Shown here piece after piece: positions 374 through 38,707 of a stretch of 38,707 nt of DNA. The DNA lies in the IMG/VR virus record IMGVR_UViG_2529292997_000008, positions 1-38,707 of that record; one strand, 5' to 3'. The notes under the pieces were generated by a model. It was not told where the DNA came from. It saw only the letters and a program-made list of their open reading frames with translations, and made no database searches. The stretch's first letter is position 1. Every line of letters starts with the position of its first letter. Origin of the DNA: a virus. Its lineage: Duplodnaviria; Heunggongvirae; Uroviricota; Caudoviricetes. The translations under genes were made by a program, and so were the position numbers.

Positions 374-1795
374 TTAAAAAGATGCTTTATTCTGGTTGTT
401 TCGTGGCGAGAATCGGCTTACCGCCGGACGTTGTTGCATTGACTGGATGCAAGCTGACGCCGCGCGGGCCTGGTCACACGGTAATATGTTGCCGTTGTCG
501 TCAAAACGCTGGTAAACAGTCCCGGTTTTTCCGTGACGGTTTTTTGAAACGATAATCTCCATGTATTCGCGTGCAACAGATTGTTCGTTGTAGTAGCCGT
601 CGCGGTATACCATGATGATCCGGTCTGCGTCCTGTTCAAGATTGCCGGAATCGCGCAGATCAGAATTGTTCGGTCGCTTGTTCGGTCGTTCCTCGACGCG
701 GCGGGATAATTGCGCCAGCGCCGCCACTGGTACGCGCAATTCTTTCGCCATCATTTTCAATGACCACGACAATTGCCCTACAGCGAGATCGTGACGTTCT
801 GCCTTAGCCAGCTTCATTAACCCGATGTAGTCAATCATTACCATACCCAGGTTGGGATAATCCTGCTTCATTCGTTCAGTTGTGGCGCGTATTTCCTCGA
901 CAGTTAACTGTGATGCATCAACAATCCACACATCGAGATCAGCAAGTGCGCTCATTCCCTGGGCAACGTGCGCCCATCCTTCGTCATCCAGTTTTACCGG
1001 ATTACGTAAGCAATCCGTTGACAAATTCCCTGCGCCAGCGATAGCGCGTTCAGTCATCTGATCGAGCGACATTTCAAGCGTGAACAGCAAAACGCCGACC
1101 CGCTGACCTTCGCCTCCAGGGTATGGGCGTTCAGCCGCCGCGCGGGCAATTGCCAACGCCAACGCCGATTTACCAGACCCTGGGCGTCCGGCGATAAGCA
1201 CCAGATCAGTAGCGTTAATGCCGCCTAACATTTCGTCGAGTGGGTCAATCCCTGTTTTGATGTTGTCAGAGTTCACGCCACACTCCATGCGTTTACTTAA
1301 CACTTCCGTGTATTCCTGGACCGCATCGCGCAACAGCACCGGGATAATTTGATCTTTTGTTACCTTTAATTTTGAATACCGGGAATCAAAATCTTTCATC
1401 GTCTCCCTGACGACTTCAAGCGTCCCTGTTTCCAGCTTGTAGCGAATGTCTTCCATTAGTTCCAGCATTTGCCGACGCTGGTGTTCTTCCTGTAGTAGTT
1501 GCGCATATCCTTTCAGGTTGGCAGCAGAAGGGCACGATCGTGCCGTTTGCATTAGCGGTACAAAGTTTTCATTGCCAATCTCATCGCCAACCAATAACGC
1601 GTCGATAAGATTTCTGTTTCTGGCTTGCGCCCGGATAACTTCAAACGCACGTTTATAAAGCGGGATCGTGAACACTTCAGGATCAAGTGTGGCGAGAACA
1701 TCTTGCGCGTTAGGAGTAAGGCCACCTAACAGTAGCCCGCCGATAACTGACGCTTCACGTTCCTGCCGTAGTGAGTTTATTTGCTCAGTTACCAT
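374..1795 (-). CDS. replicative DNA helicase, DnaB family
   Basis: 473 aa; Walker A GRPGSGKSALAL, DnaB-like N-terminal and RecA-like C-terminal layout; GGAGG RBS upstream of ATG at 1795. Confidence 0.9.
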   Translation of the reverse strand: MVTEQINSLRQEREASVIGGLLLGGLTPNAQDVLATLDPEVFTIPLYKRAFEVIRAQARNRNLIDALLVGDEIGNENFVPLMQTARSCPSAANLKGYAQLLQEEHQRRQMLELMEDIRYKLETGTLEVVRETMKDFDSRYSKLKVTKDQIIPVLLRDAVQEYTEVLSKRMECGVNSDNIKTGIDPLDEMLGGINATDLVLIAGRPGSGKSALALAIARAAAERPYPGGEGQRVGVLLFTLEMSLDQMTERAIAGAGNLSTDCLRNPVKLDDEGWAHVAQGMSALADLDVWIVDASQLTVEEIRATTERMKQDYPNLGMVMIDYIGLMKLAKAERHDLAVGQLSWSLKMMAKELRVPVAALAQLSRRVEERPNKRPNNSDLRDSGNLEQDADRIIMVYRDGYYNEQSVAREYMEIIVSKNRHGKTGTVYQRFDDNGNILPCDQARAASACIQSMQQRPAVSRFSPRNNQNKASF

Positions 1796-1813: not shown

Positions 1814-2932
1814 TTACAAAATGGAATATTCAGGGTAATAAACAAAGCGCCCAATTTCCCCATGATCCGGGCTGTAAATAATCACCGCTGCCAGACGCCG
1901 CGACCGCCAGCCGCCATTAGTTGAATATGCGTCTTTGCCAGCTAATGTGCCGTGGTGCTCAACTATTCCAAGTGATGTTTCAACAACTGATTGATGGTGC
2001 AGATGTCCAGTGTGAGCGTAAACAGCCACAGACCTTCCGAAATCCTCCCGCCAGTCAGCTACGCAAGCAGACAATAAATTTTCCGGCTTTTTGATAGTGT
2101 GCCCGTGGTGGTAAGCAAGGAATGTTTTGCCATACTGTGTGTGGTGGACAATGGCAGGTGACACGTCAACAGTCACGCGCGGCTCATCTTCGTAAAAAGC
2201 CGCAAGCGCAGCACGTAGCCAGATCATACCTGATTGGTCGTGATTACCGGATAATACCTGGATCTCGACATCCTTATGATTTAGTAACATCTTCCCGACC
2301 GCACGCCGGACCGACCGGATCGCCACATAAACCAGTTTTGCGTAGCGTGAATCACAATCTAAAACGTGATTACTTGATGGCGTCACTGGTAACAGGCCGT
2401 CAGTGTGAAGCACATCACCGCCGAGAAGTAAAACAGCTTTTTCAGACATCGGAGCAGCGCCAACAGCGTAGTCAAAGAAGTCATTCAACACGCGCTCAGC
2501 GATCCCAGTATCGTAGCTCTCACCGCATTCAGCTTTATGAGCAAGCGCCCCGATATGCAGATCAAACACCGGATAAAGTGCCAGGCTTTTTTGAAAATCA
2601 ATTTCAGGCACTGGCACAGCCTCCGCGCGTGGTATTTCATCAGTGAAAGCGTCGCGGGCCGCTTCCATTAGCTGTTCCATTTCTTCGCGGTCACGGGCTG
2701 TTTTAATCCAGCGCATGATAACATTGCCGTTCTTATCGACTAGCAACGACTCGCCATTGACGCCAAAACCAGGAGCGCGGCGTGTTGATAATAAACCACG
2801 TTTCGCCAGTTTTGCGCCCAGGCGCTCGACATTGCGTTTTGACATGCCATATTTTTCAGCAATCTGCTTGTACGTTAAACCGTTGTTATATTCAGCGATC
2901 AATTGCTCATCGCTGATTTTTCTTTGCGACAT
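1814..2932 (-). CDS. HTH domain protein fused to calcineurin-like metallophosphoesterase
   Basis: 372 aa; N-terminal HTH (LTYKQIAEKYGMSKRNVERL); metallophosphatase motifs DLH, GGD, GNHD, HHGH, GHLHH in canonical order; GAGGA RBS. Confidence 0.6.
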   Translation of the reverse strand: MSQRKISDEQLIAEYNNGLTYKQIAEKYGMSKRNVERLGAKLAKRGLLSTRRAPGFGVNGESLLVDKNGNVIMRWIKTARDREEMEQLMEAARDAFTDEIPRAEAVPVPEIDFQKSLALYPVFDLHIGALAHKAECGESYDTGIAERVLNDFFDYAVGAAPMSEKAVLLLGGDVLHTDGLLPVTPSSNHVLDCDSRYAKLVYVAIRSVRRAVGKMLLNHKDVEIQVLSGNHDQSGMIWLRAALAAFYEDEPRVTVDVSPAIVHHTQYGKTFLAYHHGHTIKKPENLLSACVADWREDFGRSVAVYAHTGHLHHQSVVETSLGIVEHHGTLAGKDAYSTNGGWRSRRLAAVIIYSPDHGEIGRFVYYPEYSIL

Positions 2933-2966
2933 AATGTTAATTCCTCAGGTTTACATTTTGTATACA

Positions 2967-4022
2967 TCAGGATATAGCACAACGAAAAAACTTGCACCCC
3001 AAATAATCCTCAATGCGTTTTTGTCTTATCGCATCGCTTTTTGCTTGCCGTTTGTGATGTGATTCATCAATTTCTACAGCAATATTATTCACAAGATCGT
3101 AGCCATCAATAAAATACTTGTTGCCAGCAACATTAACAGGATATTGCCTTATTAATTTAACTCCTTTTAGTTTTTCGTACATAGTTAATCCAGCATGTTC
3201 ATAACGCTTCCTAATCATATTTTTACAATTATAACTCATTTCTGATAATTTCTCGTCACATTCCCTTTTTATTTCCTCAATTACATTCTTGTCGCTTTTT
3301 AATTCAATAAAGTTTTCTATGTCGTTATAATTACCGCATTCAAAATTATTACTAAGACCTTTATTTTGACCCCATGTATGATACTTTTCCGCTATCTTAT
3401 CGCTAATATATCTTTCATATCCATAATTTGTTTTAACTGTAAAATATTCAATATTTAAATCAATGGTAAACTCATCATTATTAAGATGTTCATTTAAAAA
3501 CGTATCTGGATCTGCAATATCGCTTGAATGAAACAACCTTACCCATAGTTTTTCTATTGATACTCCGCGAGTAACGAACAACCATTTTTTATACTTTTCA
3601 GCATCTTCCTTTGACACATACACAGAGCATCGCCCGGGAGTATCACTAGTTTCAACATAGTTGTTACACCATAAAACATAATTATAAGCATAAGGACTAT
3701 CTTTTCTGGTATTATTTGAATATTTATTAAACACATCTTGTAAATCAACTAATCCACAAGATTCAATAACTGGCTTAACCCAATTTTCATTATATTCATA
3801 ATGTCTATATTTACCAGGTGTAACGAATCTAATAAACGTTATAGGTGTGATATACACATCATCACCATCAATAATAAAATCCTTGTATTCCTCAAATCCG
3901 TAAAGATCAGAGTATTTAACAAATGATTTAAGCCTATCGATTTCAAGTTCAGAAACAAGATTATTAACAGATAGTAATTGCGTGTCCTTACAATTTAGTT
4001 TCACATGATAAGTGGCAATCAT
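2967..4022 (-). CDS. low-GC accessory protein with C-terminal DUF559/Vsr-like (PD-(D/E)xK) endonuclease-type motif
   Basis: Track ORF 2967..4103 trimmed to ATG at 4022 preceded by AAGAGG; 351 aa; markedly AT-rich versus flanks; C-terminus FIDGYDLVNNIAVEIDESHH..DAIRQKRIEDYLGCKFFR fits pattern aIE.DG..HH...D..R...L...G..v.R. Confidence 0.6.
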   Translation of the reverse strand: MIATYHVKLNCKDTQLLSVNNLVSELEIDRLKSFVKYSDLYGFEEYKDFIIDGDDVYITPITFIRFVTPGKYRHYEYNENWVKPVIESCGLVDLQDVFNKYSNNTRKDSPYAYNYVLWCNNYVETSDTPGRCSVYVSKEDAEKYKKWLFVTRGVSIEKLWVRLFHSSDIADPDTFLNEHLNNDEFTIDLNIEYFTVKTNYGYERYISDKIAEKYHTWGQNKGLSNNFECGNYNDIENFIELKSDKNVIEEIKRECDEKLSEMSYNCKNMIRKRYEHAGLTMYEKLKGVKLIRQYPVNVAGNKYFIDGYDLVNNIAVEIDESHHKRQAKSDAIRQKRIEDYLGCKFFRCAIS

Positions 4023-4175
4023 ATGTACCTCTTTTCTTAATTTTATATATAACGCCTCAGACGTGCTACAACGCAAAAATCCCACCGCGTAACCCGTTTG
4101 CACAGGTTGCAGTGTCTTATTGCGTCAGAGGCGCTCTCAGGTGGCTAATTTTTGATTTACAGGCTGGTATGAAGG

Positions 4176-4277
4176 TTATGGATTGATAAGAAGGAACAAA
4201 CCGCCGAACAAAGCGACGTTAACAGCGATTGCAGCAGCGATGGCAAAGGCCAGGGCGAAAACGTGTTTACCGTCCAT
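4176..4277 (-). CDS. small hydrophobic peptide (33 aa, single predicted TM helix)
   Basis: MDGKHVFALAFAIAAAIAVNVALFGGLFLLINP; ATG with GAGAGGA RBS; not in track (<60 aa). Confidence 0.3.
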   Translation of the reverse strand: MDGKHVFALAFAIAAAIAVNVALFGGLFLLINP

Positions 4278-4410: not shown

Positions 4411-5463
4411 TCAAAGAGCGCCTGCGCGTGTGTCGCGTAGCGTTTTTGGTTTAAGCAGGAAATCAAGTGTCGCTGTGAAGCCATTGCCGAAGTAAAAATC
4501 TGAAGCCGTGTTTTTGAATGTTTCGAAGTAGGCGACAAAGCCGTTAATGCTTTTGTCTTTCAGGTAGTCAGTGAACGCATAGATCTTGCGTTCAAGATCC
4601 CGATCCAGTTCGACAGGTGGTAACAGGCCGTCAAACGTGCTGTTAAATGCTTCCACCACGTCGGCAGCGTTTGCAGTGGCTGACAGTTTGCGCCATTGTT
4701 CAGCATCAGTCAGATACCCATCAAATTTAGTTACCCGGCAAATATTGATAGGCTTAGGTGTTCCACCACGGCTACGCCATTGCGTTAAAGCCCACTCAAT
4801 CACTAATGTGATCTCATCCTCCGTATACGCTTTACGTGTTTTTGTTTCTGTCAGTAGTTCGATGAATGGCTTCGCATCACGACATTTGCATCCTGCCTTG
4901 TCGTTGTAGAAGGCCAGGCAACGCAACGCCGCTTCGTTTACGCCATCATGATTGACCATTTTTTGTTCATTTTCGACAATACACGAAGTGTATATATCTT
5001 TTTCTCTTTCTTCTTCTACTTCTAATTCTAATTCATGACCCTTTCCTGACCCGGTCATGACCCTATCATGACCTTTTTGTGTTGGATTGATTAACTTTTC
5101 TAATTTTAATTGCTCCTTAGCTGTGTTTATGGCGGCCCTGTACGCGCTTTTAGAAGTCATTGATTGGTCAAGCCTTTTCAATAACTTTAAACAAGTTATG
5201 TGGCCTTGAGAACATTCAAACAAACCAATTTCGATGAAGTATTTCATCATTTCTTCTATACGTTTTTCAGTCGATCCGACGTTTCGCGCAATGATTCTCG
5301 CGTCATGTCGTAGGTCAAAAGTCAGATTGTGCTGATCTACGTCATAAGTTATTAGTTCGAGGCAATACCAATAAAGCCCGTACCCTTCCAGGCCATAATC
5401 TAACAAAACGTTTTGAAGTTTTTCATCGCGGTTCGCATCGCTGTCATGCTTAAACCACTTCAT
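4411..5463 (-). CDS. replication initiation protein, phage replisome-organizer N-terminal type
   Basis: 350 aa; N-terminus MKWFKHDSDANRDEKLQNVLLDYGLEGYGLYWYCLELI resembles replisome organizer N-domain; acidic linker; GGAGGG RBS; start overlaps upstream stop. Confidence 0.65.
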   Translation of the reverse strand: MKWFKHDSDANRDEKLQNVLLDYGLEGYGLYWYCLELITYDVDQHNLTFDLRHDARIIARNVGSTEKRIEEMMKYFIEIGLFECSQGHITCLKLLKRLDQSMTSKSAYRAAINTAKEQLKLEKLINPTQKGHDRVMTGSGKGHELELEVEEEREKDIYTSCIVENEQKMVNHDGVNEAALRCLAFYNDKAGCKCRDAKPFIELLTETKTRKAYTEDEITLVIEWALTQWRSRGGTPKPINICRVTKFDGYLTDAEQWRKLSATANAADVVEAFNSTFDGLLPPVELDRDLERKIYAFTDYLKDKSINGFVAYFETFKNTASDFYFGNGFTATLDFLLKPKTLRDTRAGAL

Positions 5464-6029: not shown

Positions 6030-6677
6030 ATGAAAACAAAATGGTATGACTTAGCAAAGCAGCTCATGCGGGCGCAGGGCATGAGCCAGGATTCGCTCGC
6101 GGATCGTATGGGGATAACTAAAGGCGGCCTGTCACACTGGCTGAACGGTCGCCGAGAGCCAAATCTTGAAGATATTGCGCGGATTATGCGCGAGCTTGGT
6201 CGTCGGCAGTTTACTGTTACACATGATGGCATGGTCATTGATGATTCTGTTTCTAATACACTTCAGGCCGTGCCGCCGCGTGATTTAGGTAGTTACCCGG
6301 TTATTGACTGGAAGGACACAGTAAACAATATGGATGACGCAAGGCGTTCAGCATTACGACACGTTACGACTAGCGTTATTTGTTCAGATGACAGTTACTG
6401 GCTGGTTGCCAAAGGTGAATCAATGAACGCGCCGCAGGGGTTGAGCATCCCGGCGGGGACGATGATACTTGTGGACCCGCACGCGCCAGCTATTGACGGC
6501 AAACTGGTTATAGCCCAGCTTGAGGAAGGGCAGATACCGACGTTTAAACAGTTGATTATTGATGGAGGTCAAAGGCTTTTACGTTCGCTCAATCCGCTGT
6601 ATCCGCCAATCCCTATGAATCCAGAATCAAAAATTATAGGCGTGGTGGTTGATGCGAAGATCGTAAACCTGCCATAA
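6030..6677 (+). CDS. CI-type prophage repressor (HTH-XRE N-domain, LexA-like S24 peptidase C-domain)
   Basis: 215 aa; HTH QDSLADRMGITKGGLSHWLNGRR; C-domain with GESM serine motif and downstream Lys-containing segment; GAGG RBS. Confidence 0.85.
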   Translation: MKTKWYDLAKQLMRAQGMSQDSLADRMGITKGGLSHWLNGRREPNLEDIARIMRELGRRQFTVTHDGMVIDDSVSNTLQAVPPRDLGSYPVIDWKDTVNNMDDARRSALRHVTTSVICSDDSYWLVAKGESMNAPQGLSIPAGTMILVDPHAPAIDGKLVIAQLEEGQIPTFKQLIIDGGQRLLRSLNPLYPPIPMNPESKIIGVVVDAKIVNLP

Positions 6678-35374: not shown

Positions 35375-36034
35375 TTAATTCCAGTTGCAAGCGTTTTTCA
35401 CTTTGTCGATGTGGTTATAAAGACCATCAATGTTAAACACTGCTTTCTCAATGTCGCCAGCTTCCGGCACTACTTCAATGATGAATTGTTTTTCGTTAAC
35501 CAGTTTTTTAATCATTGGGATGGCTTTTTTGCCGTCCCATAATCCAAGAGCTTTATAATTAGTTGACCGCCACCACTCAGTAGCTACAGCTTTGTGAACG
35601 CCGATCCGGTAGTTAATATAAGTAGTGTCCCCGGCGTCAGTTACATGGTGTGACCATGCTACGAACATTTTTGTTTTATTACCCTGGCAAGCGATTGTTA
35701 ATACCGGTTTATTCTTATCCTGTGCCTTCAGTGTCGGGAAAGCATCAAGACTTCCGCTGAATTGTTCTGCTTTCACAAAAAGGAATACGTTTTTTGCGTC
35801 CTGCATATCATCTTTTCTTTCAACTACAAGCCACTGTTTACCAGCATTTTCTTTTTCTAACTGTGCATCGTATGCGGCTTGTTTTGCTTGTTGTTCTGCA
35901 AGCCATTTAGCATTTTTCTCTGCTAATGCTTGTTGCTCTTGATTGGTCACTATAGGCGCTTTTTCATTATCCTCATTGCAACCAACCAGACCCAATACCG
36001 CCGCAATCATTGCCACTTTTGCTAACCGTTTCAT
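35375..36034 (-). CDS. moron lipoprotein (219 aa)
   Basis: Signal peptide plus lipobox LVGC; Gln/Ala/Lys-rich linker; GGTGGG RBS; own promoter at 36082-36121. Confidence 0.7.
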   Translation of the reverse strand: MKRLAKVAMIAAVLGLVGCNEDNEKAPIVTNQEQQALAEKNAKWLAEQQAKQAAYDAQLEKENAGKQWLVVERKDDMQDAKNVFLFVKAEQFSGSLDAFPTLKAQDKNKPVLTIACQGNKTKMFVAWSHHVTDAGDTTYINYRIGVHKAVATEWWRSTNYKALGLWDGKKAIPMIKKLVNEKQFIIEVVPEAGDIEKAVFNIDGLYNHIDKVKNACNWN

Positions 36035-36161: not shown

Positions 36162-38504
36162 ATGGCTACCAGTGTAGGTACAATTTATTACGAAGTTGAT
36201 GCGAAAACTGGTCAACTTCTCGTTGCACAACGACAGGCAGACCAGGCCTTTGATCGTATAGAGCGCGGCGCAAAACAGGCTGACCGCCAGGTAAACACCC
36301 TGAAAACATCCATCAAGGCACTGACCAGGGTTATCCATCTGCTAATTGCTGCGGAGGCTGTGCGCCAATTTATGGATATGGCGGAGCAAGCAAAAATGCT
36401 TCGCGTAAAAATCAAAATGCTTACGGGCGATGCGGAGTCCGCCGGACGGGTTTTCGACGGCCTGAAAGCAATATCCAGGGAGACGGGGCAGAGCCTGAAA
36501 GATACTGGCGAATTATGGCAAGGCCTGGCTATCTCACTAAAAAACACCTCCGCTACGGAAGGGCAATTGCTTAACCTGGTTGGCACTATTCAGAAAATGG
36601 GTGCATTAGGCGGCGCGTCAGCGGAACAGATGTCTAACTCAATGCGTCAATTCCGTCAGTCTATCGACGGCGGTGTTCTTCGTGCCGAAGAATTTAACAG
36701 CCTGCTTGAAAATACGCCGACCATCGTACAAACAATGGCCCGCCATATGGGATTATCAATGGGCCAGTTCCGCGCCGAAATGCTGGACGGCAAGATCACG
36801 GCTGAAAGGATGGTTAACGCAATACAGGCGGCTACGCAGGAAACAAACGATAAGTTTGCTCAGTTGCCGCGCACATCCGGCATGGCTATCAATGAGCTTA
36901 AAGTAGAAATTATGGGCCTTGTTGAGCAGTTGGATGATCTTTTTGGCGTGTCAGATGGCGTTGTTTCAGCTATCGACTTGATCACGAAAGGCGTTAAAGG
37001 GCTTGGCGATGGCGCTAAATTCGCTAAAACCTGCTTCGACACACTCAAAACGGCTGGTAGCGAATTTATCGACATGTTTGATGATGTGGCTGTTAAGGCT
37101 GGAGAGGTGGCAGAGAAGATCATCGCAATGGTGACGCCAATCAAGGCGCTAATGGATGGCTATAAATGGATGAAGGAGGTAGTAGGAGAGCAAACCGACG
37201 AATATAACAGCAACTACGAGAAGAAATACGGGAAGACCGTTGGCAAGGTCATGCAACTACAGGATGATCTGACCGCAGCAATCCAGGCTACAGAAGAAGC
37301 AAGGAAAAATGAACAGAATGCTGCCAATGACGGAGCGATTACCGGATTCGACAAGCCAGTAGACAAGCCGAAAAAACAGAAAAAAGAGAAGAAATCGGAA
37401 GCTGATCGGCTTGGTGACAAAGGTATAAGCGTTTCTGATCAGTACAACAAAGACGCCGCCGCCATGCGCAAAGCGTTGGAGAACGGCAAGGCCATTGATG
37501 CTGCATTTGCCCAGGGTAAAATCACGCTCCTTGAGTACCGCGCCGCGCAAAAAGGGATCGGCAAGGAACTGAAAGAAGAATTAGCACAAATTCCGGTAGA
37601 TGAATTGCGTGATAAATGGTCACAAATAGTAAGCCCGATGGATCAGCTAAAAGGCGAAGTTGACCCCATCCAGCAGGCGCAAAATGAATGGGCCATCCGT
37701 AAGCAAATGCTTATAGACCTGGGCGCTACTGAAGCGCAACAGAAACAGGAATTGTTAGCCTATGAGCAACAGATCCGCGATCTGAAATGGGAACAATGGC
37801 AGGCGCAAAGCGACACAAACGGCCTTATCGGTGATTGTGTTAATGGCCTTAAAGGCGGAATGAGTAATGCGCTTGTTGGCCTGTTAAACGGCACTCAATC
37901 ATTGAGTGATGTTTTTGCTAACTTAGGAAGCAATATACTCGGCAATATCGGTAACAGACTCTCAGACATAGCTGCAAACTGGATAGCAGATCAGATCATG
38001 ATGGAGACACAAAGCAAGGCCACGCAAACAAGTACAACAGCAAGCGCGGTAGCAGCTCAGGGAAGCATTGCTGCGGCGGCGGCCCCAGCAGCGGCGGCAA
38101 CTGCGGCGTCAACTGGCGGTAGCTGGGCGGCGGCTGGTTCGGCGGCGCTCACTGCGATCATGTCGCTGGCTACGTCAATTTTCGGCGGCGGTCGCTTTAA
38201 TGGTGGTAGCGTCATTGGTGGTAATATGTACCGCGTAGGGGAACACAACAGGCCGGAGCTATTCCAGACATCTAACGGCAATCAATATATGATCCCTGGC
38301 GAGAACGGCAGAGTTATTCCGGGCCGTGATATTGGCGGCGGTGGCGGTATTAGTATGCCTGTCAGTATCAGCATTCAGACCACGAACGGATTCAGCGACG
38401 AAGACAGCCGCAGACTTGAATTAACAATGGAACGTGTAGCCATGAAAATGATAACAAGGGAATCTCAAAGACCAGGCGGAATGTTGCAACCTCGCCGCAA
38501 ATAA
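36162..38504 (+). CDS. tail tape measure protein
   Basis: 780 aa; long helical Ala/Gln/Glu-rich protein, Gly-rich C-terminal region, in tail module. Confidence 0.8.
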   Translation: MATSVGTIYYEVDAKTGQLLVAQRQADQAFDRIERGAKQADRQVNTLKTSIKALTRVIHLLIAAEAVRQFMDMAEQAKMLRVKIKMLTGDAESAGRVFDGLKAISRETGQSLKDTGELWQGLAISLKNTSATEGQLLNLVGTIQKMGALGGASAEQMSNSMRQFRQSIDGGVLRAEEFNSLLENTPTIVQTMARHMGLSMGQFRAEMLDGKITAERMVNAIQAATQETNDKFAQLPRTSGMAINELKVEIMGLVEQLDDLFGVSDGVVSAIDLITKGVKGLGDGAKFAKTCFDTLKTAGSEFIDMFDDVAVKAGEVAEKIIAMVTPIKALMDGYKWMKEVVGEQTDEYNSNYEKKYGKTVGKVMQLQDDLTAAIQATEEARKNEQNAANDGAITGFDKPVDKPKKQKKEKKSEADRLGDKGISVSDQYNKDAAAMRKALENGKAIDAAFAQGKITLLEYRAAQKGIGKELKEELAQIPVDELRDKWSQIVSPMDQLKGEVDPIQQAQNEWAIRKQMLIDLGATEAQQKQELLAYEQQIRDLKWEQWQAQSDTNGLIGDCVNGLKGGMSNALVGLLNGTQSLSDVFANLGSNILGNIGNRLSDIAANWIADQIMMETQSKATQTSTTASAVAAQGSIAAAAAPAAAATAASTGGSWAAAGSAALTAIMSLATSIFGGGRFNGGSVIGGNMYRVGEHNRPELFQTSNGNQYMIPGENGRVIPGRDIGGGGGISMPVSISIQTTNGFSDEDSRRLELTMERVAMKMITRESQRPGGMLQPRRK

Positions 38505-38540: not shown

Positions 38541-38568
38541 CACAGAAAACCCCCAGCTAGGCTGGGGG
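38541..38568 (-). terminator. candidate convergent terminator for minus-strand transcription from beyond the window
   Basis: CCCCCAGC-TAG-GCTGGGGG hairpin with T-run on the minus strand only. Confidence 0.4.
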
Positions 38569-38707
38569 TTCCGGAAAGCTTTCAGCTTTAAGCCAGTTAT
38601 TAAAACCCCTTTTGATTTGTTAAAACACCTTGCGGTCTGGCAACTGCAAGTGTCAAACAAGAAATCAAAAGGGGGTCCCAATGGGGAACGAAAAGAGCTT
38701 AGCGCAC

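Follow-up and report, generated by a model that had tools for sequence, protein, structure and literature searches.

We have analyzed a 38,707-nucleotide stretch of DNA from a virus of the Caudoviricetes (IMG/VR record IMGVR_UViG_2529292997_000008, positions 1 to 38,707; hereafter the window), and our results center on an AT-rich cassette within its replication operon that carries a single gene. The 351-residue product of this gene ends in a domain predicted to have the fold, and the set of residues, expected of an active Vsr-like nuclease, and we favor, at a probability of roughly 0.45, a model in which the cassette gene is a free-standing, site-specific endonuclease gene of the homing type that resides in a hot-spot of the early/replication operon. 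Several lines of evidence lead us to this model. The cassette is present or absent among related phages with exact borders at one intergenic site, and every carrier examined holds it in that one slot. The model also accords with a small, apparently intact nuclease that is under selection, is coupled to a variable, presumably DNA-targeting head and has head-swapped paralogues, and with the presence of T5orf172 genes of the homing-endonuclease type in the same slot of relatives. Indirect support comes from a probable recombination boundary at the edge of the cassette and from the duplication of a flank in one of the alleles, that of E. coli M15.

The cassette and its slot

The preliminary description, made from the letters of the window alone, had pointed to a one-gene insertion marked by a sharp drop in base composition within the replication operon; this is borne out, and related phages lack the insertion. 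The G+C content (GC) of 2965-4060 is 0.307, compared with a mean of 0.462 (standard deviation 0.027, minimum 0.394) in 33 non-overlapping segments of equal size elsewhere (z = -5.7), and the edges are sharp, with 100-bp bins dropping from 0.49-0.50 to 0.25-0.42 and returning to 0.50 by 4065. At third codon positions the cassette gene has a GC of 0.233, against 0.475 and 0.521 for the neighboring exonuclease and helicase genes. In an alignment with phage MagusPhagus, homology runs to 2964 and resumes at 4061, and the junction in the prophage of strain STEC308 is identical to the empty one of MagusPhagus. These breaks define the island as a 1096-bp cassette that consists of exactly one gene and a 38-bp leader. 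No tRNA gene or Rfam family was detected in or beside it. The gene had been placed at 2967-4103 with a 351-residue product; the product stands, and the upstream part of the interval does not, the open reading frame (ORF) 2967-4103 being a mechanical GTG-started extension to 378 residues. We assign the coding sequence to 2967-4022, leaving 4023-4103 outside, because AAGAGG precedes the ATG at 4022, because the M15 orthologue has the same ATG start (preceded there by AAGGAGG), and because 4061-4103 is intergenic DNA kept in relatives that lack the cassette gene.

The flanks of the cassette are 89-95% identical to phages and prophages of the mEp021/mEpimmI group, and sequence similarity places the window among the mEp021-like (mEpimmI) temperate phages of E. 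coli, a group of Nus-dependent non-lambdoid temperate coliphages (PMC11893012). Between the Lin1244-type initiator gene and the genes for the exonuclease and DnaB helicase, these phages have a cargo hot-spot whose borders are common to the relatives (left ...AATGTATA, right ACGC.CTACAACGC...). Among the 37 prophage relatives in the listed complete E. coli genomes, with cargo classed by annotation, the slot holds a "zinc-ribbon" gene in about 12, a KilAC gene in 5, a BRO gene in 2, the cassette gene of the window in 2, and an Ant and a Rha gene in 1 each; it is apparently empty in about 7 of the 37, as judged from span lengths and the lack of annotated cargo, the junction itself having been read in STEC308 only. 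Pfam scans of individual cargo genes reveal composite proteins. The cargo of FAH and mEp021 encodes three to five DUF4379/CapR treble-clef zinc fingers followed by a C-terminal T5orf172/MUG113 domain of the GIY-YIG superfamily, and this finger-plus-T5orf172 architecture is that of free-standing homing endonuclease genes, which cluster beside essential phage genes (PMC10055350, PMC8096241). Bro-N+KilAC proteins are encoded in mEp515_13 and strain 127, Rha+KilAC proteins in NRZ96606 and mEp044_11, and Rha with a part that has no recognized domain in strain 190, while the mEp044_12 gene, in the same slot, joins Bro-N to the very C-terminal module found in the window protein. All of these cargo genes have a GC below that of their flanks (0.36-0.45), with the window gene as the extreme.

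The empty allele is itself informative about the history of the slot. In MagusPhagus (about 2960-2985) and STEC308 (1745-1775 of its locus) it consists of TGTATATTTATT joined to TTCCGTAAAAC, the former being the stop-codon side seen with zinc-finger cargo and the latter the ribosome-binding-site side seen with Bro/Rha cargo. Because both sides match occupied-slot versions, the empty allele looks like a precise deletion of an ORF rather than a site that was never occupied.

The exact protein of the window, E. coli KTE83 A1W1_01504, is encoded on at least 127 contigs and, across the 25 contigs read, lies in the same slot between a 33-residue ORF and the exonuclease gene everywhere shown or summarized. 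Alleles were found in only 2 of 5,426 complete E. coli genomes, those of M15 (94% nucleotide identity) and Ecol_244 (79%), and the full gene was found in none of the deposited phage genomes. Both divergent alleles occupy the same slot, in Ecol_244 behind a replication initiator that belongs to a different module, and all three are AT-rich (GC 0.31-0.34). Between the window and Ecol_244, synonymous divergence (dS) is 1.27 in the cassette, 0.78 in the exonuclease gene and 0.56 in the helicase gene; between the window and M15 it is 0.13 in the Lin1244-type gene, 0.21 in the cassette and 0.71 in the exonuclease gene, a step that points to a recombination boundary at the downstream edge of the cassette. 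In M15 itself (4447-4585 of its locus), about 140 bp of extra AT-rich DNA separates the exonuclease start from the DUF559 stop. On either side of this DNA stands a version of the GGTT.AC...TGTATA flank, the cassette-side flank being duplicated, and the arrangement looks like the scar of a cassette exchange by recombination. The acquisition of the gene had been called recent. This does not hold, since the alleles differ by dS 0.21-1.27, equal to or above the flanking core genes, and yet all are AT-rich and in the same slot; the sequences instead indicate an old mosaic resident of the phage family whose AT bias has not ameliorated. Nor did we find an orthologue of normal composition with a role in replication, the gene being dispensable in most relatives.

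A predicted Vsr-like nuclease with a divergent head

The C-terminus of the protein had been assigned to the DUF559/Vsr-type PD-(D/E)xK nucleases, and profile searches uphold this assignment. The domain matches Pfam DUF559 (PF04480) at E = 1.3e-4, its 22.2 bits exceeding the gathering score of 20.6, with residues 283-339 aligned to positions 28-80 of the 109 in the profile; its relatives score 23.5-25.6 bits, and the PADLOC model mREase_II, which represents the nuclease part of PvuRts1I-type enzymes, is matched at E = 2.3e-7 over positions 37-101 of 294. Searched against the PDB, a six-sequence profile retrieves AbaSI (E = 0.0037) and PvuRts1I (E = 0.05), with which the protein shares an E-[IV]-D-E-x-H-H block (EIDESHH here, EVDEGHH in AbaSI and EIDEAHH in PvuRts1I) that is their catalytic block as defined by mutation. 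An AlphaFold model of residues 268-351 has a mean predicted local distance difference test score (pLDDT) of 88.9 and a predicted template modeling score of 0.77, and superposes on solved restriction-endonuclease-like folds. The listed values are 8.0-9.1 for RAP domains, 8.7 for the Cas4-like protein SSO0001, 7.7 for the catalytic domain of the homing endonuclease I-Bth0305I, 7.6 for NGO0050 (DUF559, 24% identity), 6.8 for Vsr and 6.1 for AbaSI (29% identity). The predicted core fold is Vsr-like and, as far as examined, does not refute a catalytic role of the C-terminal motif.

The residues required for catalysis in related enzymes are well defined. In AbaSI, mutagenesis has shown D61 (equivalent to Vsr D51), E75 and H78 to be essential, metal binding is aided by E72 and D74, and E26 corresponds to Vsr E25 (PMC4081097); in I-Bth0305I, a composite E-D-x-H-D set is formed by E170, D196, N208, H213 and D222, the equivalents of Vsr E25, D51, H64, H69 and D97 (PMC3239194). 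The corresponding positions of the window protein are E283, Q293, D306, E317-I318-D319-E320, H322-H323 and D330. They are invariant or nearly so among the 17-20 members of two family alignments, and E283, D306, H323 and D330 fit the Vsr/I-Bth0305I set with similar spacing. One difference was found, the lysine K23 of AbaSI being T280 here. As aligned, the metal-binding and general-base set is complete (E283, D306, E317, D319, E320, H323 and D330), and on the strength of the modeled fold together with these aligned residues we conclude that the complement of an active Vsr-like nuclease is predicted to be present. The ratio of nonsynonymous to synonymous divergence (dN/dS) between alleles is 0.04-0.13 in this part of the protein. 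We consider it likely that the protein combines an active Vsr-like nuclease with a targeting region at its N-terminus.

The N-terminal region, or head, was described at the outset as some 275 residues without a recognizable domain, and this impression has withstood every search: residues 1 to about 275 match no Pfam, PHROG or NCBIfam family, segment scans at Pfam E<=10 and PHROG E<=1 returned nothing relevant, and an exhaustive HMMER search with residues 1-270 against 1.84 billion representative proteins recovered only the protein's own cluster besides one spurious match. The latter, a 1045-residue repeat protein (P0007, E = 3.9e-4), was rejected as a relative because its score derives from six copies of one 34-residue stretch. 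A Foldseek search of the full-length model against the PDB likewise gave nothing significant, with PvuRts1I at E 0.2-0.4 only. The head has a dN/dS of 0.11-0.13 between alleles that differ by dS 0.2-1.3, a pattern of purifying selection indicative of a real, constrained protein region.

Within the head, two segments provide a clue to its nature. SVYVSKEDAEKYKKWL (residues 133-148) and ERYISDKIAEKYHTWG (203-218), which end the modules that we call M2 and M3, are alike (shuffle z 4.2, p about 0.0025), and the modules align with each other at an hhalign E of 0.0012. A threefold internal repeat was considered and is not established, M2 and M3 alone being alike and a putative M1 not significant. 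A related arrangement occurs in an E. coli phage contig (DAPHJQ010000028.1, locus L022), in which an annotated 78-residue DUF559 protein (P0010) is in fact the end of a 232-residue ORF (3539-4237). The head of this L022 protein reaches 23.3 bits with Pfam KilA-N (PF04383; E = 6e-5; gathering score 23.8) and carries the terminal motif twice, as YFAPQHVANEYSGWL and TYATKDVAAAYDAWL; behind it comes the same nuclease, 68% identical. The L022 gene is found just upstream of the holin and lysozyme genes, and its phage carries two HNH_3 insertions as well. The modules of the window protein are co-linear with the L022 head in hhalign but weakly so (M2 with its K2, E = 0.0047; whole N-terminus, E = 0.05), and a module profile found no PDB sequence below E 1. 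Because of this co-linear alignment with a KilA-N-type head we tentatively infer, at low statistical support, that the head comprises two, perhaps three, degenerate KilA-N-like DNA-binding modules. An AP2 domain was also considered, since x-Y-V-S-x-x-D-A-E-K-Y resembles G-x-F-x-T-x-E-E-A-A-x-A-Y; it was dropped for the KilA-N-like reading, itself weakly supported, there being no AP2 match and the spacing being off by one residue.

The nuclease part, a module of about 80 residues, recurs behind other heads. At 55-68% identity, it is fused to Bro-N in mEp044_12 and similar proteins; it is also fused to a Rha head in Vibrio phage 1.206.O and in the T4-like Krischvirus pEJ01 (where it neighbors an HNH gene as well as frd/td), and to KilA-N in phage L022, and it is found as short stand-alone ORFs too. 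A structure search of viral proteins also retrieved it from Bro-N proteins of giant viruses, from ALI-motif proteins of entomopoxviruses and from phage proteins whose annotation reads "homing endonuclease" or "VSR endonuclease". Phage contigs of about 100-140 kb carry the module as an ORF directly downstream of an AntA ORF; at loci L012 and L013 (3792-4285), in contigs of about 120-140 kb, a 60-residue AntA ORF is followed 27 bp later by a 94-residue Vsr-like ORF (P0013). This pair represents either one gene that has been split or the head-plus-nuclease design in two parts. Altogether the module acts like an exchangeable nuclease cartridge within the Bro-N/KilA-N/Rha network, which together with AntA reportedly forms the domain-shuffling network of DNA viruses described by Iyer, Koonin and Aravind in 2002. 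T5orf172/GIY-YIG domains are likewise interchangeable nuclease cartridges (PMC8096241, PMC10055350).

Homing and its alternatives

How the gene is expressed bears on what it could do. A TATATA stretch upstream had been suggested as its own promoter, which our analysis does not support: on the minus strand no sigma-70-like site was found upstream of the cassette gene, the -35 hexamer that partners TATATA scores 3/6 only, and the best candidate by eye, TTGTAG-N18-TATAAA, is weak (8/12). Further upstream, between the 33-residue ORF and the slot, a 13-bp stem-loop followed by GGAUUUUUG, a run of U residues, resembles a terminator. It is kept in 11 of 11 aligned relatives with one compensatory change from C-G to A-U, and is probably an intrinsic terminator that is read through by the phage's Nus-dependent antitermination. 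Since there is no promoter-like site and a hairpin with a U-run lies upstream, expression is probably by read-through of the early operon, and we regard the cassette gene as probably a delayed-early lytic gene. The lack of a promoter-like site and the co-orientation with the early operon agree with expression during lytic growth, whereas expression in the lysogen is unsupported because of that same lack and because the gene sits inside a repressed early operon. Of the two candidate functions named at the outset, a homing-type endonuclease fits this context better than does a defense nuclease expressed by the lysogen.

In the model that we favor, infection or induction would be followed by transcription of the cassette gene along with the early genes, and the head would supply target specificity to the nuclease. 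The product would nick or cut a specific site in co-resident genomes of related phages without the cassette, at or near the slot and thus beside essential replication genes, and recombinational repair would copy the cassette and adjacent flank into the cut genome, in the manner of homing or marker exclusion. DNA binding by the head, cleavage, the identity of the target and homing are all inferred from the patterns described above, as is any super-Mendelian inheritance of the cassette.

A number of observations weigh against this model. In a full-length AlphaFold model built with three orthologues the pLDDT of the head is below 50, and the KilA-N-like nature of the head depends on hhalign E-values of 1e-3 to 5e-2, no Pfam family being matched by the window protein there. 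A lone Vsr-like active site may merely nick DNA. The slot also holds cargo without a nuclease domain (Bro-N+KilAC and Rha+KilAC), which makes it a general accessory-gene hot-spot and means that occupancy alone is no proof of homing. Among 11 aligned loci, a search of the flanks for substitutions that only cassette carriers have, as an immunized target might show, turned up none beyond a junction variant, AACGCCTCAGAC, that is also present with the T5orf172 cargo of mEp021. Finally, the alleles are as diverged as their flanks, with dS as high as that from Ecol_244, which looks like long vertical residence and mosaic exchange rather than a recent sweep.

An alternative, which we consider doubtful, is that the gene encodes a competitor-exclusion or defense nuclease, possibly a domesticated homing endonuclease, whose head recognizes rival phage or satellite DNA, or modified DNA in the manner of PvuRts1I and AbaSI, for destruction by the Vsr-like domain. 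The benefit would then fall to the carrier phage or lysogen and not to the spread of the gene, and a gain for the phage would more readily account for the maintenance of the gene under purifying selection across a long divergence. By sequence, the modification-dependent restriction enzymes AbaSI and PvuRts1I are the nearest to the nuclease block, morons typically show a strong AT bias and occupy accessory-gene slots, and there is precedent in ICP1 Odn, a nuclease derived from a homing endonuclease and retargeted against satellites (PMC10055350). Yet no reader domain, SRA-like or otherwise, was detected, the parts are arranged in the opposite order to those of PvuRts1I, the PADLOC match covers a small part of its model only, and the gene is rare among complete genomes; as argued above, expression in the lysogen is also unsupported. 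A more specific version, by analogy with Odn as the nearest case but on a PvuRts1I-type catalytic core, is that a previously unseen 270-residue DNA-recognition domain retargets the minimal Vsr-like nuclease as a domesticated early-lytic weapon against a specific competitor, be it a satellite, the replication origin of a rival prophage or modified phage DNA. We consider this unlikely; if true, it would provide a compact (about 80 residues) programmable nuclease module with a new specificity domain.

It is similarly improbable, in our estimate, that the protein is an antirepressor-like regulator of the Bro/KilA/Rha/Ant kind, acting on early genes or the lysis-lysogeny switch through DNA binding, with the Vsr-like module as an interaction or DNA-binding domain. 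Most of the alternative cargo in the slot consists of Bro-N/Rha+KilAC proteins annotated as antirepressors, the nuclease module is swapped with KilAC behind identical Bro-N and Rha heads, and CapR shows that domains by which homing endonucleases bind DNA can turn into repressors (PMC8096241). However, every alignable catalytic residue of AbaSI, Vsr or I-Bth0305I is invariant or nearly so across the family, and this invariance, together with the low dN/dS of the C-terminal part, would be unexpected after a loss of activity and so disfavors an inert nuclease. An accessory nuclease of replication or recombination, nicking the origin or processing intermediates together with initiator, exonuclease and helicase, is very unlikely: the gene does lie between the initiator and the exonuclease and helicase genes in the same orientation, and in Vibrio phage 1.090.B a DUF559 gene is found just upstream of replication genes, including one of the DUF4373 type, but most relatives have unrelated cargo or nothing in the slot and the composition of the cassette is foreign to the replication module.

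If the homing-type model is correct, the short list of Vsr-like (PD-(D/E)xK) endonucleases of the homing type gains a member from an enterobacterial temperate phage, and the Vsr-like module of about 80 residues would stand beside T5orf172/GIY-YIG as a further nuclease cartridge in the Bro-N/KilA-N/Rha/AntA network. Proteins labeled only "DUF559" would gain a concrete functional hypothesis, and truncated gene calls in relatives are exposed. The mEp021-type slot is in effect a natural swap experiment, with at least six alternative cargo genes and an empty allele at one position, and since cultured phages exist (the mEp series and MagusPhagus), homing and marker exclusion are directly testable. 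In other respects the case is an ordinary one, a selfish or accessory phage gene of a familiar kind.

Neighboring genes and comparison with known systems

On the minus strand the order of genes is a MarR-like gene, the Lin1244-type initiator, the 33-residue ORF, the cassette, the exonuclease and the DnaB helicase; their coordinates and those of the features discussed above are collected in Table 1.

Table 1. Positions in the window of the cassette, its parts and its neighbors
Feature	Position	Strand	Basis or remark
AT-rich single-gene cassette, 1096 bp	2965..4060	.	Alignment with empty-site relatives; about 15-17 bp instead in MagusPhagus and the STEC308 prophage
Coding sequence, 351 residues and stop	2967..4022	-	Identical to E. 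coli KTE83 A1W1_01504, "DUF559 domain-containing protein"
Ribosome-binding site AAGAGG, 5 nt 5' of ATG 4022	4028..4033	-	Direct sequence reading
N-terminal region, residues 1-270, presumed DNA-targeting	3213..4022	-	Relatives are its own orthologues only; purifying selection
Module M2, residues 88-152, ends in SVYVSKEDAEKYKKWL	3567..3761	-	Weak similarity to M3 and to K2 of the L022 protein
Module M3, residues 153-224, ends in ERYISDKIAEKYHTWG	3351..3566	-	Weak similarity to M2
Predicted minimal Vsr-like/DUF559 PD-(D/E)xK nuclease domain, residues 271-351	2970..3212	-	Profile matches and model; alpha-beta-beta-beta-alpha-beta order
Catalytic block E317-I-D319-E320-S-H322-H323	3054..3074	-	Corresponds to AbaSI E72-V-D74-E75-G-H77-H78
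D306 codon, metal-binding aspartate	3105..3107	-	Equivalent to Vsr D51, AbaSI D61, I-Bth0305I D196
Terminator-like 13-bp stem-loop, then GGAUUUUUG	4072..4114	-	Conserved flank, not cassette
33-residue hydrophobic ORF MDGKHVFALAFAIAAAIAVNVALFGGLFLLINP, upstream of slot	4176..4277	-	Conserved in all relatives, annotated in mEp phages
Lin1244-type replication initiation protein, upstream neighbor	4411..5463	-	Library profile matches
Helix-turn-helix and metallophosphoesterase-type "DNA repair exonuclease" (phrog_704), downstream neighbor	1814..2932	-	Library profile matches
DnaB-type replicative helicase	374..1795	-	Library profile matches
LexA/cI-type repressor	6030-6677		Divergent from the minus-strand genes

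Three further observations concern other parts of the phage. A second polymorphic slot lies in the helicase/exonuclease interval, where mEp515 (1831-2385 of its locus) and mEp021 (1331-1834) carry an HNH "homing endonuclease" gene; in the window it is empty, with just 18 bp between the two genes. A 219-residue ORF at 35375-36034, on the minus strand and thus opposite to the tail genes, matches the VasI/EvfG family of type VI secretion systems (PF11319, E = 1.2e-15). It lies in the region of second-lowest GC in the window (0.39), just before the tape-measure gene (36162-38504), and looks like a second moron-like insertion, this one in the structural module. Directly downstream of the tape-measure gene, 38548-38671 on the plus strand is a full-length match to the Rfam family STnc490, an Hfq-binding small RNA (146 bits against a gathering score of 56).

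Much of what we describe has counterparts among characterized systems. The nuclease family, its architecture and its ecology are already known, and the exact protein bears the NCBI label DUF559; what is new is the highly divergent head, the recognition of the slot as a swap site for homing-type and Bro/Rha cargo, and the link between a mini Vsr-like module and the Bro-N/KilA-N/Rha network in coliphages. Pfam DUF559 (for example NGO0050, PDB 3HRL) is matched above its gathering score, as noted, but the family of the window protein ends directly behind the final strand, with the C-terminal part of DUF559 missing. The Bro-N, KilA-N, Rha and AntA proteins share the Vsr-like module, fused to the first three heads or beside an AntA ORF, and M2 and M3 have a weak likeness to the KilA-N terminal motif, whereas the window protein matches none of these heads in Pfam. 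Free-standing T5orf172 homing endonucleases with CapR/DUF4379 fingers offer a parallel of a different kind. They occupy the identical slot in FAH and mEp021, combine repeated N-terminal DNA-binding modules (weakly supported here) with a small C-terminal nuclease, and lie beside essential replication genes (PMC10055350), yet their nuclease has the GIY-YIG fold rather than PD-(D/E)xK and their DNA-binding modules are others.

The two closest comparisons are complementary. AbaSI and PvuRts1I are the best sequence matches among solved structures and have the E-[IV]-D-E-x-H-H block in common with the window protein, together with an aspartate upstream of it and a D..R helix downstream. Their nuclease is N-terminal rather than C-terminal, however, the SRA-like reader of 5-hydroxymethylcytosine was not found in the window protein, the AbaSI lysine at K23 is replaced, and the PvuRts1I family profile (PF21598) scores 13.2 bits against a cut-off of 27. 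The EDxHD homing endonucleases (I-Bth0305I, PDB 3R3P, and the Hef type) differ in that identity is about 10% with no sequence match to 3R3P at E<=10, that neither NUMOD nor any other Pfam family matches residues 1-275 of the window protein at E<=10, the N-terminal regions being unrelated, that the cassette gene is not in an intron or intein, and that the EIDESHH block is PvuRts1I-like and not the I-Bth0305I version. They nevertheless have the same plan of an N-terminal DNA-binding region (presumed here) and a C-terminal Vsr-like domain, the same composite E...D...x...H...D set with like spacing (E283, D306, D319, H323 and D330 here), and the same phage-borne habit, some members being free-standing (PMC3239194). 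The closest precedent for the cassette gene is thus twofold: the EDxHD enzymes (I-Bth0305I/Hef) in architecture and fold, and PvuRts1I/AbaSI in catalytic sequence.

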